From the NCBI RefSeq assembly GCF_003334305.1, contig NZ_QOWS01000001.1: a stretch of DNA of 64,000 nucleotides, one strand, 5' to 3'. The stretch comes from Escherichia coli (GTDB lineage: Bacteria; Pseudomonadota; Gammaproteobacteria; Enterobacterales; Enterobacteriaceae). The notes under the pieces are model-generated. The model made no database searches and was not told the DNA's origin. It was given only the letters and a program-made list of their open reading frames with translations. Of this stretch, positions 31,078 to 36,805 are shown piece by piece. Both the position numbers and the translations under genes were made by a program. Within the stretch, counting starts at the first letter, position 1. Each line of letters begins with the position of its first letter.

Positions 31078-31557
31078 ATGATGCTCGCGTTAGGTATGTT
31101 TGTTTTTATGCGCCAGACACTGCCACACCAGACCATGCAGCGTGAATCGGATTATCGCTGGCCGTCAAATTCCCGTATCGGTAAACGGGATGCCTACCAG
31201 TTTCTCGGTGTGGGTGAGGAAAACATCACGCTGGCCGGTGTGCTTTATCCCGAACTGACCGGCGGAAAGCTGACGATGACCACGCTCAGGCTGATGGCAG
31301 ATGAAGGTCGGGCGTGGCCGTTGCTGGATGGCACCGGCATGATTTACGGCATGTATGTCATCAGCAGGGTGAGTGAAACAGGGAGTATTTTCTTTGCAGA
31401 CGGCACACCCCGAAAAATTGATTTTACGCTGTCGCTCACCCGCGTTGACGAATCACTGGCCGCGCTTTATGGCGATATCGGTAAACAGGCGGAATCGCTC
31501 ATCGGTAAGGCTGGCAGTATGGCGACTAAATTCACAGGTATGACGGGGGCGGGATAA
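31078..31557 (+). CDS. U: tail protein U (159 aa)
   Basis: 159 aa as in P2 U. Confidence 0.88.
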   Translation: MMLALGMFVFMRQTLPHQTMQRESDYRWPSNSRIGKRDAYQFLGVGEENITLAGVLYPELTGGKLTMTTLRLMADEGRAWPLLDGTGMIYGMYVISRVSETGSIFFADGTPRKIDFTLSLTRVDESLAALYGDIGKQAESLIGKAGSMATKFTGMTGAG

Positions 31558-32720
31558 TGCTGGATGCGCTGACATTTGATGCAGGCAGTACGCTGACGCC
31601 GGATTACATGCTGATGCTCGACAGCAGGGATATTACCGGCAATATCAGCGACCGTCTGATGAGCATGACTCTGACGGATAACCGGGGCTTTGAAGCTGAC
31701 CAGCTTGATATTGAACTGAACGATGCCGACGGGCAGGTCGGGCTGCCGGTTCGTGGCGCTGTCCTGACGGTGTATATCGGCTGGAAAGGTTTTGCCCTGG
31801 TATGCAAAGGGAAATTTACCGTTGATGAGGTTGAACACCGGGGCGCACCGGATGTGGTCACCATCCGCGCCCGGAGTGCAGATTTTCGCGGGACGCTCAA
31901 TTCCCGCCGTGAAGGCTCCTGGCATGACACCACGCTCGGTGCGATTGTTAAGGCGATAGCCACCCGTAACAGGCTGGAAGCCAGTGTCGCTCCGTCACTG
32001 GCCGGAATAAAAATTCCACACATCGACCAGTCGCAGGAGTCTGATGCGAAATTCCTGACCCGTCTTGCAGAACGCAACGGCGGTGAGGTGTCGGTAAAAA
32101 TGGGAAAACTGTTGTTTCTCAAAGCGGGGCAGGGAGTGACGGCCAGCGGTAAAAAAATCCCGCAGGTCACCATAACCCGCAGCGACGGCGACCGCCATCA
32201 TTTTGCGATTGCTGACCGTGGAGCCTACACCGGTGTAACGGCAAAATGGCTACACACTAAAGACCCGAAGCCGCAAAAGCAGAAGGTAAAACTGAAACGC
32301 AAAAAGAAAGAGAAACACCTGCGCGCACTGGAGCACCCGAAAGCGAAACCGGTCAGGCAGAAGAAAGCGCCTAAAGTACCGGAAGCGCGTGAAGGTGAAT
32401 ACATGGCCGGTGAGGCTGACAACGTTTTCGCCCTGACCACGGTATATGCCACGAAAGCGCAGGCCATGCGCGCCGCTCAGGCGAAGTGGGATAAACTGCA
32501 ACGGGGCGTTGCGGAGTTCTCTATCAGCCTGGCTACCGGTCGGGCAGATATTTACACGGAAACACCGGTCAAAGTGTCTGGCTTTAAGCGCGTCATAGAC
32601 GAGCAGGACTGGACAATCACTAAGGTGACACATTTTCTGAATAATAGCGGCTTCACGACGTCCTTAGAGCTTGAGGTCAGGCTTTCTGATGTGGAGTACG
32701 AAACAGAAGATGATGAGTGA
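31557..32720 (+). CDS. D: tail protein D (387 aa)
   Basis: 387 aa as in P2 D; last late structural gene before ogr. Confidence 0.88.
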   Translation: MLDALTFDAGSTLTPDYMLMLDSRDITGNISDRLMSMTLTDNRGFEADQLDIELNDADGQVGLPVRGAVLTVYIGWKGFALVCKGKFTVDEVEHRGAPDVVTIRARSADFRGTLNSRREGSWHDTTLGAIVKAIATRNRLEASVAPSLAGIKIPHIDQSQESDAKFLTRLAERNGGEVSVKMGKLLFLKAGQGVTASGKKIPQVTITRSDGDRHHFAIADRGAYTGVTAKWLHTKDPKPQKQKVKLKRKKKEKHLRALEHPKAKPVRQKKAPKVPEAREGEYMAGEADNVFALTTVYATKAQAMRAAQAKWDKLQRGVAEFSISLATGRADIYTETPVKVSGFKRVIDEQDWTITKVTHFLNNSGFTTSLELEVRLSDVEYETEDDE

Positions 32721-32804
32721 TGTTTTTGTTTTATCTGTTTGTTTTGTAAGGATAAATTAACTAAAATGGCACCATCAACAAAACCGGAAGAGGTGCTCGC
32801 GATG

Positions 32805-33020
32805 TTTCATTGTCCTTTATGCCAGCATGCCGCACATGCGCGTACAAGTCGCTATATCACTGACACGACAAAAGAGCGTTATCATCAGTGCCAGAACGTG
32901 AATTGCAGCGCCACGTTCATCACTTATGAGTCGGTACAGCGATACATCGTGAAGCCGGGAGAAGTCCACGCCGTAAGGCCGCACCCGTTGCCATCAGGGC
33001 AGCAAATTATGTGGATGTAA
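32805..33020 (+). CDS. ogr: late gene transcriptional activator Ogr (72 aa, zinc finger)
   Basis: MFHCPLCQHAAHARTSRYITDTTKERYHQCQNVNCSATF… with a CxxC…CxxxxC zinc finger; 72 aa from the internal Met of the listed ORF. Confidence 0.9.
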   Translation, partial: FHCPLCQHAAHARTSRYITDTTKERYHQCQNVNCSATFITYESVQRYIVKPGEVHAVRPHPLPSGQQIMWM

Positions 33021-33030
33021 TTACAAACAG

Positions 33031-33057
33031 AAAGCCCCTCAGTCGAGGGGCTTTTTT
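33031..33057 (+). terminator. rho-independent terminator after ogr
   Basis: GC-rich hairpin GCCCCTC-AGTC-GAGGGGC followed by TTTTTT. Confidence 0.75.
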
Positions 33058-33121
33058 GTCGATGTGGTCAATGTGTGGACGTGACCAGAAATAAATCCTT
33101 TTATTTCAATTTATTGTACGT

Positions 33122-33148
33122 AAAAAATAAGCCCGTGTAAGGGAGATT
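33122..33148. repeat. attR core (27 bp), coincident with the 3' end of cyaR
   Basis: Exact direct repeat of 2280..2306. Confidence 0.85.
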
Positions 33149-33208
33149 ACACAGGCTAAGGAGGTGGTTCCTGGTACAGCTAGCATTTTATGGGTTATGT
33201 TTTTCAGC
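33122..33208 (-). ncRNA. cyaR: CyaR (RyeE) Hfq-dependent sRNA, 87 nt
   Basis: The reverse complement reads GCTGAAAAACATAACCCATAAAATGCTAGCTGTACCAGGAACCACCTCCTTAGCCTGTGTAATCTCCCTTACACGGGCTTATTTTTT, which matches the CyaR sequence as I recall it, including the terminator hairpin and U-tail; lies between ogr and yegQ. Confidence 0.8.
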
Positions 33209-33292
33209 GAAACGGATGATAACCTTAATAAATGCAGCTGTATGTGATCGGTTTCTAAGAATTTTCCATCCGGGAAAAATAATCGAAATTAA

Positions 33293-34654
33293 TCACTTAC
33301 CGTGGGGATTACGCGTGGTTTCCCCGGAGAAATTACGCATCAGCAGCGCGTAATTGAGCTCAAGATCCTGCGGGACCGGGAGCCACACAGTATAACCATC
33401 GCCTGGTGCTATCGGCATAGCTTCGCCTTTGGCGTTTTCCATGTGCTCAAGGGTAAAATTAATGTTGCCTTGCGGCGTCATCAGCTCAAGGCTGTCGCCA
33501 ACGGAGAATTTATTTTTCACCGCTACCGCCGCGAGGTCCCCCTTGCGCTCACCGGTAAACTCACCAACAAACTGCTGGCGGTCAGAAACTGAATAACCGT
33601 ATTCGTAGTTCTGATAATCGTCGTGAGTATGACGACGCAGGAAACCTTCGGTATAGCCACGATGCGCTAGACCTTCCAGAGTTTCCAGCAGGCTGGTATC
33701 GAACGGTTTTCCCGCAGCGGCGTCATCGATAGCTTTGCGGTAAACCTGTGCGGTGCGTGCACAATAGTAGAAAGATTTGGTACGACCTTCGATTTTCAGC
33801 GAATGCACGCCCATTTTGGTCAGGCGTTCTACATGGGCGATGGCGCGCAGATCTTTCGAGTTCATGATGTAAGTGCCGTGCTCATCTTCAAACGCGGTCA
33901 TATACTCGCCCGGACGCTGGGCCTCTTCGATCATAAACACTTTGTCGGTTGGTGCGCCGATACCCAGCGTCGGCTCAACATTTTGCACCGGAATCGGCTC
34001 GTACTTGTGTACGATGTTGCCAACATCATCTTCTTTCCCTTCCTGGACGTTGTACTCCCAGCGGCAGGCGTTGGTGCAGGTGCCCTGGTTCGGGTCGCGC
34101 TTGTTGATATAGCCAGAGAGCAGGCAGCGACCGGAGTAGGCCATGCACAGCGCGCCGTGAACGAAGATCTCGATCTCCATATCCGGCACCTGATTGCGGA
34201 TCTCTTCAATCTCTTCCAGCGACAGCTCGCGAGAGAGGATCACGCGGGTCAGGCCCATTTGCTGCCAGAATTTCACCGTCGCCCAGTTCACGGCGTTAGC
34301 CTGCACCGAAAGGTGGATCGGCATTTCAGGGAAGTGCTCACGCACCAGCATAATCAGCCCTGGATCGGACATAATCAGCGCATCCGGCCCCATTTCCACC
34401 ACCGGTTTCAGGTCACGGATAAAGGTTTTCAGCTTGGCGTTGTGCGGTGCAATGTTGACCACGACATAAAACTTTTTCCCCAGCGCGTGGGCTTCATTGA
34501 TGCCGAGCTGAAGATTTTCGTGGTTGAATTCGTTGTTGCGCACACGCAGGGAATAACGCGGCTGGCCCGCATAAACAGCATCTGCGCCATAAGCGAAAGC
34601 GTAACGCATATTTTTCAGCGTTCCCGCCGGGGAAAGGAGTTCCGGTTTAAACAT
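33293..34654 (-). CDS. yegQ: U32-family peptidase-like protein YegQ (453 aa)
   Basis: 453 aa; cysteine-rich central region (CxxxC…C) typical of U32 peptidase/RlhA-like proteins; conserved neighbour of cyaR. Confidence 0.85.
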   Translation of the reverse strand: MFKPELLSPAGTLKNMRYAFAYGADAVYAGQPRYSLRVRNNEFNHENLQLGINEAHALGKKFYVVVNIAPHNAKLKTFIRDLKPVVEMGPDALIMSDPGLIMLVREHFPEMPIHLSVQANAVNWATVKFWQQMGLTRVILSRELSLEEIEEIRNQVPDMEIEIFVHGALCMAYSGRCLLSGYINKRDPNQGTCTNACRWEYNVQEGKEDDVGNIVHKYEPIPVQNVEPTLGIGAPTDKVFMIEEAQRPGEYMTAFEDEHGTYIMNSKDLRAIAHVERLTKMGVHSLKIEGRTKSFYYCARTAQVYRKAIDDAAAGKPFDTSLLETLEGLAHRGYTEGFLRRHTHDDYQNYEYGYSVSDRQQFVGEFTGERKGDLAAVAVKNKFSVGDSLELMTPQGNINFTLEHMENAKGEAMPIAPGDGYTVWLPVPQDLELNYALLMRNFSGETTRNPHGK

Positions 34655-34756
34655 AATTCTCTCGTTCTGATGACAGGTCAGATCCGCTTCACCTGATGAA
34701 GCGGTTAGGGGAGTGCCCCCACTTTAAGGGCGGGCATTGTAGCGCAATCGGCGGGT

Positions 34757-35053
34757 TTAGCTCCAGTGTAAATGTCTGGTGGCGTCCTGGTTTTGGTTAA
34801 GGATACGAATGACGATAATTTCCCCTGGTGATTGCAGGAAATAAATGACGTGGCGTTCAAAAGGAAGAACAAAAATACCTTCGCCTAATTCAGGTCTGGG
34901 CGTACCTATATTATTGTTACTCAGAATCTGGAGAACGTCTGAAAGATGTTCCACATATCTGTCGGCTTGTGGTTCGCCGAAATGGTGATAGCTGTAATAC
35001 CAGATGCCTTCTAAATCCTCATTGGCTTTTGGCATGAGTTTAATAATACGCAC
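34757..35053 (-). CDS. ParE/RelE-superfamily toxin (type II TA)
   Basis: 98-aa basic protein immediately downstream of, and abutting, an RHH antitoxin-like gene; same size class as ParE toxins. Confidence 0.6.
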   Translation of the reverse strand: MRIIKLMPKANEDLEGIWYYSYHHFGEPQADRYVEHLSDVLQILSNNNIGTPRPELGEGIFVLPFERHVIYFLQSPGEIIVIRILNQNQDATRHLHWS

Positions 35054-35054
35054 A

Positions 35055-35306
35055 TTATTTCCTTATCCCTGCTTTCACCTTCCGTAAGAACGCGTCCTTT
35101 TCCCACGGCTGAGCTTCACCACTACTCAACCCTTCTGCGAGCATGTCACGTAACGCTTGCAGGCGAGACTCTGCTTGCTTTTCTCGAAGTAATCGCAGTG
35201 ACTCACGGATCACTTCGCTTTGGGTGCGATAGTCGCCGGATTCAATTAAGGACTCGATAAATTCACGCAACTCATCGCCGAGATCAACCGTCATCGTTCT
35301 GGCCAT
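35055..35306 (-). CDS. ParD-like ribbon-helix-helix antitoxin (83 aa)
   Basis: MARTMTVDLGDELREFIESLIESGDYRTQSEVIRESLRLLRE is a classic RHH/ParD (COG3609-like) N-terminus; its stop abuts the toxin start. Confidence 0.65.
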   Translation of the reverse strand: MARTMTVDLGDELREFIESLIESGDYRTQSEVIRESLRLLREKQAESRLQALRDMLAEGLSSGEAQPWEKDAFLRKVKAGIRK

Positions 35307-35559
35307 TTTACGCCCGCCTGTAAGTAAAAATCTTACATCAGTGTATGTCATAAACCGGATAGCGTCACGAAAGTATTAGAAGATATTTTGGCACATGAAC
35401 ATGTTCAGGAGGATAAGTATGGGATGGTAAACAAAGAAAGCACAACGAGTGCTCGTCAGTGCCCACTATTTTAATGGCGGCGGTTACTCTTAATTATTAA
35501 TAACTAAGCGTTATTTGGATATAAAGCCGGACGCCAACAACCCACGCCCGGCATCGTAA

Positions 35560-35892
35560 TTACGTATTGTCTTTCACCGTCTGGCTTGTGCCATTGGCTT
35601 TAACGGAGGCAATTCCGGTTTCACGAGATTGCGCGGTGGCGTACATCTGGCTGGAGCCGATAATTTGATGATTAGCGGCTTTCAGATTGAAATAGAATTT
35701 GCCGTTACTTGCCGTTTTTTTCTCATAGCGTTCTTCTTGCGGGCTGTTGCTACGCACCGACGCGATGCCCTTTTCCGCAGAGGCTTTTGAGGTATACAGC
35801 TCGCTGGTGAGGATAGTCTCACCATTGCCCGCTTTTAGCACAAACCGGAACTGATTATCACTGCTCTTACTGAGTTCAAACCAACCAGCCAT
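35560..35892 (-). CDS. yegP: UPF0339-family protein YegP (110 aa)
   Basis: Tandem-duplicated YegP-type motif (GWFEL…FRFVLKAGNGE and KFYFNLKAANHQ); 110 aa from the MAGWFEL start. Confidence 0.8.
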   Translation of the reverse strand: MAGWFELSKSSDNQFRFVLKAGNGETILTSELYTSKASAEKGIASVRSNSPQEERYEKKTASNGKFYFNLKAANHQIIGSSQMYATAQSRETGIASVKANGTSQTVKDNT

Positions 35893-36082
35893 AATGACTC
35901 CTTGATTGAAATTGTGTATCGAAAACAGCATCTAAAGGTGCTGTTTACCGATTAAAGTATGAGCGATTTTCTGATGCCTGCCAGGGCGGAGAGATAATGT
36001 CAGTTTGCTGACCATGCGTGGGATAATGTTGCCGGATCGGGTCTGAACGCCATCTCCGGCTAACAAAATAATGTCGCTAAAA

Positions 36083-36805
36083 CTAAACGATGCGGCAGGC
36101 GTCGGCTTCCCAGCGGTAACCGACGCCGTAAACGGCGCGGATAAATGACTGTTCGGCGTCGAGAGATTCCAGCTTGCGGCGCAGGTTTTTAATGTGGCTG
36201 TCAATGGTGCGGTCGGTTACTACGCGGTAGTCGTCATAAAGATGATTGAGCAATTGCTCTCGGGAGAACACTTTTCCTGGTTCATGAGAGAGCGTTTTCA
36301 GCAGACGAAATTCCGCAGGCGTCAGGTCAAGCATTTTACCGCGCCATGAAGCCTGAAAACGACCTTCGTCGATAATCAACGGGCTTTCAGCATCCTGTTG
36401 CTGCAACTCGCGCTGCGGTTTGCAACGGCGCAAAATGGTTTTGACGCGCGCTACCACTTCCCGTGGGCTGTACGGCTTACAGATATAATCATCTGCGCCA
36501 ATCTCCAGCCCCAGCAGGCGATCGATCTCTTCGATTTTTGCCGTCACCATCACGATCGGAATGTCAGAAAAACGACGAATTTCCCGGCACAGCGTCAAGC
36601 CATCGGTGCCAGGGAGCATCAGATCCAACAGGATCAGATCCGGTGGTGTCTGGCGCACATACGGCAGTACCTGATCGCCGTGGCTGATAAGCGTCGGCGC
36701 ATAGCTCGCAGCACGCAGATAATCAATGAGCAACTGCCCCAGCTTCGGTTCATCTTCCACGATCAAAATACGCGGTGTGTTTTCGTCGATTGGTAACTCG
36801 GTCAT
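36083..36805 (-). CDS. baeR: envelope-stress response regulator BaeR (OmpR family)
   Basis: 240 aa; receiver domain (ILIVEDEP…[11 protein letters not shown]) plus a winged-helix C-terminal domain; overlaps the baeS stop. Confidence 0.9.

Follow-up and report, generated by a model that had tools for sequence, protein, structure and literature searches.

Here, we observe that the spacer between yegP and yegQ (trhP) in a 64,000-nt stretch of Escherichia coli DNA (contig NZ_QOWS01000001.1; the whole stretch is called the window below) is occupied by two reverse-strand genes, parD followed by parE, which form a real, ordinary chromosomal ParD/ParE toxin–antitoxin (TA) pair. The pair is already known. 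RefSeq labels the locus as a type II toxin-antitoxin system and annotates the products as a ParD family antitoxin (WP_001307279.1) and a RelE/ParE family toxin (WP_001220181.1), so that this standard ParDE pair carries little weight as a discovery. The spacer itself is a three-state polymorphic site with nested states (empty, parDE, and a 5.2-kb island), and the locus has long been polymorphic for the presence or absence of the pair, which was lost or replaced repeatedly. The three nested states illustrate well how a TA module decays and is replaced.

The spacer corresponds to the interval 34655-35560 of the window and extends from the start of yegQ/trhP to the stop codon of yegP (reverse strand, beginning at 35560). 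Its genes and limits are:

35055-35306, reverse strand: parD, an 83-aa ribbon-helix-helix (RHH) antitoxin, MARTMTVDLG...IRK (PF03693, TIGR02606, PrpA alignment)
34757-35053, reverse strand: parE, a 98-aa ParE-family toxin with a GTG start (PF05016, PDB matches, AlphaFold2 model)
34746-35525, reverse strand: variable segment of 780 bp, which marks off this allele from the 'empty' allele of K-12 (pairwise alignment with K-12 BW25113)
33293-34654, reverse strand: open reading frame (ORF) of yegQ/trhP, at whose start the spacer begins

The layout is that of a type II TA operon, with a small antitoxin gene directly upstream of a small toxin gene on the same strand. Only one base separates the parD stop codon from the GTG start of parE, and the AAGGA Shine-Dalgarno sequence of parE sits within the 3' end of parD. 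In K-12 BW25113, the spacer measures 146 bp compared to 905 bp here, and in the pairwise alignment the 780 bp of the variable segment replace 21 bp of K-12. The flanks are near-identical in both strains, with 1 difference over the 1362 bp of yegQ and 2 over a stretch of 367 bp at the end of yegP. The GC content of the variable segment is 44%, and that of the whole window 52%. An earlier interpretation made from the letters of this DNA (the sequence-only reading) had described abutting reverse-strand genes for an RHH ParD antitoxin and a 98-aa ParE toxin, and had suspected that the pair is absent from K-12. The profile, PDB and fold matches described below agree with the former, and the comparison of the spacers bears out the latter.

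ParD matches the profile ParD_antitoxin (PF03693) over residues 1-78 with E = 4.7e-19 and reaches 88.4 bits against NCBIfam TIGR02606, which has a curated cut-off of 46.2. Residues 6-42 match RHH_1 (E = 0.0034). The alignment with the antitoxin PrpA (7ycs_D; 1.9e-27 over residues 2-78) spans the N-terminal RHH as well as the C-terminal toxin-binding region, and both domains also align with VcParD2, CcParD1 and MtParD1. By these matches, the antitoxin is a ParD-family RHH protein.

The RefSeq form of this protein comprises 98 aa (MTYTDV...) and starts at 35351. The antitoxin-like ORF in our listing has the same extent (35055-35351, reverse strand) and contains the MARTMTVDLG... start at 35306. 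The RefSeq start is an over-extension, 15 codons too long (35307-35351). Both E. whittamii and E. coli O55:H7 DEC5E carry one extra nucleotide directly ahead of the second ATG, so that the upstream ATG is no longer in frame, and yet the 83-aa MARTMTV ORF is intact. Gene callers give an 83-aa parD in Pseudocitrobacter, and when the 83-aa form is aligned with Pfam or PrpA, the match sets in at its residue 1-2. The start at 35306, which was also the choice of the sequence-only reading, is therefore right. The upstream ATG at 35351 falls within the probable parD promoter. This error is useful to know, since a start that is 15 codons too early leads to false 'frameshifted' pseudogene calls. The DEC5E parD carries this label in the PGAP annotation, though its 83-aa ORF is whole. 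The over-extended ParD region was also seen at L019 3051-3096 and at L009 upstream of 3748.

The toxin matches the profile ParE_toxin (PF05016) at residues 4-90 and model positions 1-88 of 89 (E = 2e-13). This match alone does not discriminate ParE from RelE, because PF05016 covers RelE-type mRNases as well, with E. coli K-12 RelE as a member of its RelE subcluster (PMC11980606). A phmmer search against all PDB chains returned only ParE-type matches, namely PrpT (2.3e-12), MtParE1, CcParE1, VcParE2 and MoParE3, and the toxin aligns full-length with solved ParE toxins only. An AlphaFold2 model, calculated from an alignment of 91 diverse homologues out of 1966 representatives with E ≤ 0.001, has a mean pLDDT of 94.9. 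It shows a short strand, helices 8-25 and 27-46, and strands 60-65, 68-74 and 78-86, i.e., an N-terminal alpha-hairpin packed on a three-stranded sheet. In a Foldseek search of the PDB with this model, ranks 1-23 are all chains of ParE-type toxins (TM 0.56-0.88), led by PrpT with a TM of 0.88 and an rmsd of 1.1 Å. The first RelE-type match follows at rank 24 with a TM of 0.57, and RelE, YoeB and YafQ reach about 0.5-0.65. ParE structures are matched with TM values of 0.74-0.88, and all structures of RelE, YoeB or YafQ rank lower. By its sequence matches and predicted fold, the toxin belongs with the ParE proteins and not with the RelE-type mRNases. That it acts as a ribosome-dependent mRNase of the RelE type instead of a gyrase poison, a reading for which the mixed content of PF05016 leaves room, is extremely improbable. 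Besides the PDB ranking, BLASTP gave no alignment with E. coli RelE (a sequence entered by hand), and the partner protein is of the ParD family and not RelB.

Upstream of parD, four cis elements were noted:

35319-35337, no strand assigned: inverted repeat TGTAAG-N7-CTTACA, candidate ParD operator, 12 nt upstream of the parD start (conservation)
35368-35363 and 35345-35340, reverse strand: candidate sigma-70 promoter, GTGACG (-35-like) and TACACT (-10-like) separated by 17 nt (read from sequence, conservation)
35397-35406, no strand assigned: perfect 10-bp palindrome GAACATGTTC, upstream of the -35 site (read from sequence)
35438-35454, reverse strand: terminator-like hairpin with T-run, upstream of the parD promoter and inside the variable segment (terminator scan)

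The regions upstream of parD were aligned for seven loci, i.e., this window, E. whittamii, Pseudocitrobacter, a Salmonella plasmid, two plasmid-like contigs and a Yersinia prophage. Here, TGTAAGATTTnnnCTTACA is almost invariant, while the neighbouring sequence has diverged. The alignment also shows a TAnACT hexamer 2-3 nt upstream of the conserved repeat and a TGGAC/GTGAC motif about 17 nt further up. The assignment of the parD promoter is based on these conserved hexamer positions and does not come from a promoter scan. TGTAAG-N7-CTTACA occurs once in the window, where 0.10 chance matches are expected. The predicted layout is the one expected of a ParD operator that overlaps the promoter and the transcription start, and a conserved palindrome on the promoter side fits autoregulation by ParD. 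The palindrome GAACATGTTC was considered as operator, too. It is conserved in Escherichia only and not in Pseudocitrobacter or the plasmid relatives, and TGTAAG-N7-CTTACA was therefore preferred. The terminator-like hairpin is kept in E. whittamii and may insulate parDE from read-through out of yegP.

We consider it probable, with good confidence, that the pair is a chromosomal ParDE-type type II TA operon which is autoregulated, in which ParD neutralises ParE, and whose free ParE poisons gyrase. A single promoter (GTGACG-17-TACACT) would drive parD and then parE, and the 1-nt gap together with the Shine-Dalgarno sequence inside parD suggests translational coupling of the two genes. If the solved ParD-ParE complexes are taken as a model, ParD would dimerise via its N-terminal RHH domain. 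The dimer would bind TGTAAG-N7-CTTACA at the promoter and thereby repress the operon, while the C-terminal half of ParD would wrap around ParE and neutralise the toxin. Upon depletion of ParD, e.g., by Lon or Clp proteolysis or by gene loss, free ParE would poison DNA gyrase, with DNA damage, SOS induction and finally growth arrest or death as the presumable consequences. We infer toxicity, the gyrase target, operator binding and a benefit for the host in this scheme. Its gyrase step draws on homology to VcParE2 and MtParE1, which inhibit gyrase (PMC3001019, PMC10899793), and on the phenotypes of other enterobacterial ParE proteins (PMC10203498, PMC6614396); for ParE of pYV, SOS induction and a ciprofloxacin-like phenotype were described (PMC10203498). 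At the family level, with the locus unspecified, ParDE modules are among the gene groups for which a statistical link to evolving quinolone resistance in E. coli was reported (PMC10575684). In evolutionary terms, the module has the character of an old, self-maintaining accessory locus, which about one third of E. coli keep under purifying selection, whereas the rest have it deleted or replaced.

The closest solved relative is PrpT/PrpA from a plasmid of Pseudoalteromonas rubra (7YCS, 7YCU, 7YCV; PMC9731233). PrpA resembles ParD over nearly its full length with about 60% identity (our own count from the alignment), whereas PrpT and the toxin share only about 32-37%. The expected architecture is the same in both systems, an RHH ParD dimer flanked by two ParE monomers. 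PrpTA resides on a plasmid, and a role in the control of plasmid replication was proposed for PrpA, too; the pair described here lies in the chromosome, and there is no replicon in its vicinity. VcParD2/ParE2, MtParDE1 and CcParDE1 (7R5A, 8C24, 3KXE) are chromosomal and have the same fold (TM 0.83-0.84) at 26-31% identity. The stoichiometries of the Vibrio, M. tuberculosis and Caulobacter complexes differ, and thus the assembly of our pair is not predictable from them. ParDE-I (YacAB) of IncI/IncF plasmids (PMC6614396) and ParDE of RK2 are further E. coli-associated TA systems of the ParE family, for which SOS induction and plasmid stabilisation were shown. For ParDE-I, the description gives COG3905 for the antitoxin and about 15% identity to CcParE1 for the toxin, and by this description it is a different system from the close plasmid homologue dealt with below. 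RK2 ParE is not among the PDB or close sequence matches of our toxin.

Several points weigh against an active gyrase poison under ParD control. Trp25 of VcParE2 is key for toxicity; among the substitutions tried, only Tyr gave full toxicity back, and Phe lowered it (10.1101/2025.07.24.666505). By our own reading of the alignment, the corresponding position here is Phe25. Pseudomonas aeruginosa ParE1 has been described as non-toxic, no gyrase assay was reported for PrpT (PMC9731233), and the toxicity of a ParE protein is not readable from its sequence. A divergent E. coli allele (L005) shows 5 non-synonymous and 2 synonymous changes in parE; the numbers are small, but the toxin may be under weaker constraint in some lineages. 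The consensus promoter scan reports no reverse-strand promoter, as the candidate has 8/12 matches at a threshold of 9/12. A literature search with the RefSeq accessions of the pair, or with ParE together with yegP, yielded nothing relevant; we found no paper on this particular pair, and its presumed activity is taken over from homologues.

The Phe25 substitution and the L005 allele, whose dN/dS for parE is about 0.64 on 7 changes, might also be explained by an attenuated or domesticated module, in which a weakly toxic or non-toxic ParE is carried along and the pair persists as a small transcription-factor unit or by inertia. Truncated toxin variants in public data and several lineages that lost the pair with no obvious consequence would be in line with this. 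We nevertheless regard attenuation as unlikely. Judged by dN/dS against E. whittamii (0.02 for parD, 0.10 for parE), selection on the pair is purifying, and both genes are annotated and intact in all 60 of 60 sampled carrier records. Moreover, Escherichia sp. E1V33 lost parD and the 5' half of parE together, the route that is expected if a lone intact parE is lethal.

Returning to the toxin–antitoxin operon as such, its coding region was found in 1844 of 5426 complete E. coli genomes (34%), in single copy, always chromosomal and at this locus. Identity is ≥99% in 1554 of the 1844 carriers, and most of the copies are 100% identical. Among the chromosomal TA loci of E. coli that K-12 lacks, the pair is thus one of the more frequent, and no experimental study of it was found. 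The genuine K-12 derivatives BW25113 and DH5alpha CP045741 are without it. The record NZ_CP026085.1 ('DH5alpha', 4.83 Mb) has parDE at 100% identity (1792645-1793194) and is probably mislabelled.

A third allele of the spacer occurs in 298 of the 5426 genomes, including the type strain ATCC 11775:

L006 1437-6670 (E. coli A0 34/86): 5.2-kb island, equivalent to window positions 34776-35463

The island has a GC content of 40%, and its genes code for one protein each with a PcfJ domain, DUF1266 and DUF4034, and for a hypothetical protein. The two ends of the parDE segment are preserved in it, namely 34746-34775 of the window, including the parE stop codon, and 35464-35525. We conclude that the island arose in a parDE-bearing ancestor, in which it replaced the parDE core. 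The DUF4034 protein gives a weak PADLOC match (PDC-S32, E = 4.8e-4).

Outside E. coli, the order in E. whittamii is baeR-yegP-parD-parE-yegQ, with a ParE of 95-96% identity (tblastn, global alignment). In Escherichia sp. E1V33 (L011 1357-1700), a decayed remnant was found. Of parE, only the 3' half is left there (codons ~56-98, 85% identical), along with the end of the segment on the yegP side; a joint deletion has taken parD, the promoter and the 5' half of the toxin gene. In Pseudocitrobacter (L012 and L013 3628-4398), where the locus was identified by exact BaeR and TrhP proteins, the order is baeR-parD-parE-trhP without a yegP gene. Hence, the linkage between the TA pair and trhP spans genera, while that of yegP does not. 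ParE and ParD of Pseudocitrobacter are 80% and 92% identical, respectively; for core genes of Pseudocitrobacter, the nucleotide identity is 82-86%. The dS between E. coli and E. whittamii is 0.17-0.23 for parDE, compared to 0.39 for yegQ, 0.52 for baeR and 1.05 for yegP; the low value of parDE may be due to an exchange between the two species at a later time, or to noise from a small sample.

The sequence-only reading had taken the pair for strain-specific DNA that was inserted at this position. The first part does not hold in view of the 1844 carriers and of the copies in E. whittamii and Pseudocitrobacter. A recent gain is contradicted as well, since the arrangement is old, being syntenic in these two taxa, with a remnant in E1V33 and an island nested inside. 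Together, the nested island, the decayed remnant and the old synteny suggest that several of the 'absent' states are losses or replacements.

Three further lines of evidence on this history were tried and set aside. Loss in K-12 is not proven by a vestige of the parE 3' end in the 21-bp junction, because the local alignment was no better than chance (its score was reached by 658/2000 and 192/2000 shuffles). Imperfect direct repeats flank the segment, AGTGCCCCCACTTTAAGGGCGG near yegQ and AGTGCCCACTATTTTAATGGCGG near yegP. Nominally, so good a match is rare in E. coli (6/3000 shuffles), and it is absent in E. whittamii (1377/3000); it was not relied on as evidence of an att-like site or a target duplication. 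Finally, O55:H7 (pair present) and O157:H7 (pair absent) were compared as a possible dated loss. Their flanking genes differ by ~1.4%, which points to recombinational replacement of the region, and thus the comparison is no clean deletion test.

The next relatives, with ParE proteins of 61-69% identity, are located on large plasmids of Salmonella, Klebsiella and Citrobacter. These IncFIB-type plasmid ParDE modules are the closest relatives outside the chromosomal clade, and no experimental paper on this subgroup was found. On the Salmonella plasmid pRM11065-1 (L008), ParD is 88% and ParE 67% identical to the chromosomal pair, and the operator palindrome and the promoter layout are the same. 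The plasmid genes differ from ours in that they overlap by 14 nt and encode a ParD of 88 aa. In the plasmid-like contigs L016 and L017, parDE has genes for a Rep3_N replication initiator and for a tyrosine recombinase as neighbours; unlike that of the chromosomal pair, this is a classic plasmid-maintenance position. Intact plasmid copies occur in Salmonella and Klebsiella. On the E. coli IncFIA/FIB/FIC plasmid p89_MLI108-3 (L007 2301-2589), parE is broken into three frames and parD is lost next to IS1, and seven more E. coli plasmid matches show the same fragmented pattern.

These plasmid copies raise the question of anti-addiction, i.e., a chromosomal ParD that neutralises the ParE of IncFIB-type plasmids and so permits plasmid loss without post-segregational killing. 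The 88% identity of the Salmonella plasmid ParD, which includes the C-terminal toxin-binding half, the shared palindrome, the position of the L016 and L017 modules next to replication genes, and the decay of the copies on E. coli plasmids would all be consistent with it. Cross-neutralisation is conjectural, however, and the specificity of ParD for ParE can shift with few residues, as work on Mesorhizobium ParDE reportedly found. We regard anti-addiction as distinctly unlikely. If true, a chromosomal anti-addiction ParD would shape which plasmids E. coli lineages can lose.

For the chromosomal ParDE operon, the position relative to trhP, which encodes a tRNA U34 hydroxylase, is conserved as well: parDE lies directly upstream of and co-oriented with this gene in Escherichia and Pseudocitrobacter. 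One further element belongs here:

34736-34741, reverse strand: TACAAT, likely -10 element of yegQ/trhP (comparison with K-12)

This putative -10 element starts 15 nt past the parE stop codon, and the point at which the alleles part is located between -10 and -35 of the putative yegQ/trhP promoter. The terminator scan found no terminator-like site between parE and yegQ. The parE–yegQ leader folds no better than shuffles (z = -1.0), and an Rfam search of 32700-36100 reported CyaR only, with no known RNA element in the spacer. Given the conserved position, the missing terminator and the allele boundary inside the putative trhP promoter, autoregulation by ParD/ParE could couple trhP expression to stress. 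We see a slim chance that the module is more than a selfish passenger, either in this way or because ParD serves as an anti-addiction factor. If true, the coupling would link tRNA wobble modification to stress.

Beyond yegQ, the window contains the end of a P2-like prophage and an sRNA gene:

31557-32720: end of the P2-like prophage, gpD-like late control protein
32739-33020: end of the P2-like prophage, Ogr-like zinc-finger activator
33125-33210, reverse strand: CyaR sRNA gene, adjoining the prophage end (Rfam, 100.7 bits)

The sequence-only reading had associated the pair with this prophage and cyaR hotspot and had proposed prophage stabilisation or phage defence as possible functions. Neither the link nor the defence role found support. 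yegQ and the CyaR gene separate the pair from the prophage end; strain E2865 has the identical pair with no prophage gene annotated between yegR and yegQ, and strain Z142-7 has prophage genes and an empty spacer. In general, TA modules can act in defence, a relative with a ParE of 61% identity is located beside lysis genes in a Yersinia prophage, and the toxin has matches in two families of phage proteins whose function is unknown. On the other hand, neither protein matches any defence family of PADLOC-DB v2 at E ≤ 0.1, and a single partial match was obtained among 50,697 phage records. Abortive infection, or stabilisation of the adjacent prophage, thus appears very unlikely as the role of the pair.

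Two minor observations may be added. Pluralibacter gergoviae (L010 4001-4290) carries a ParE relative in another chromosomal context, 69% identical over residues 1-97; this copy is interrupted, its ORF from the start codon comprises 43 aa, and it is probably a pseudogene. At the position of the prophage, K-12 has a gpD fragment and ogrK only.

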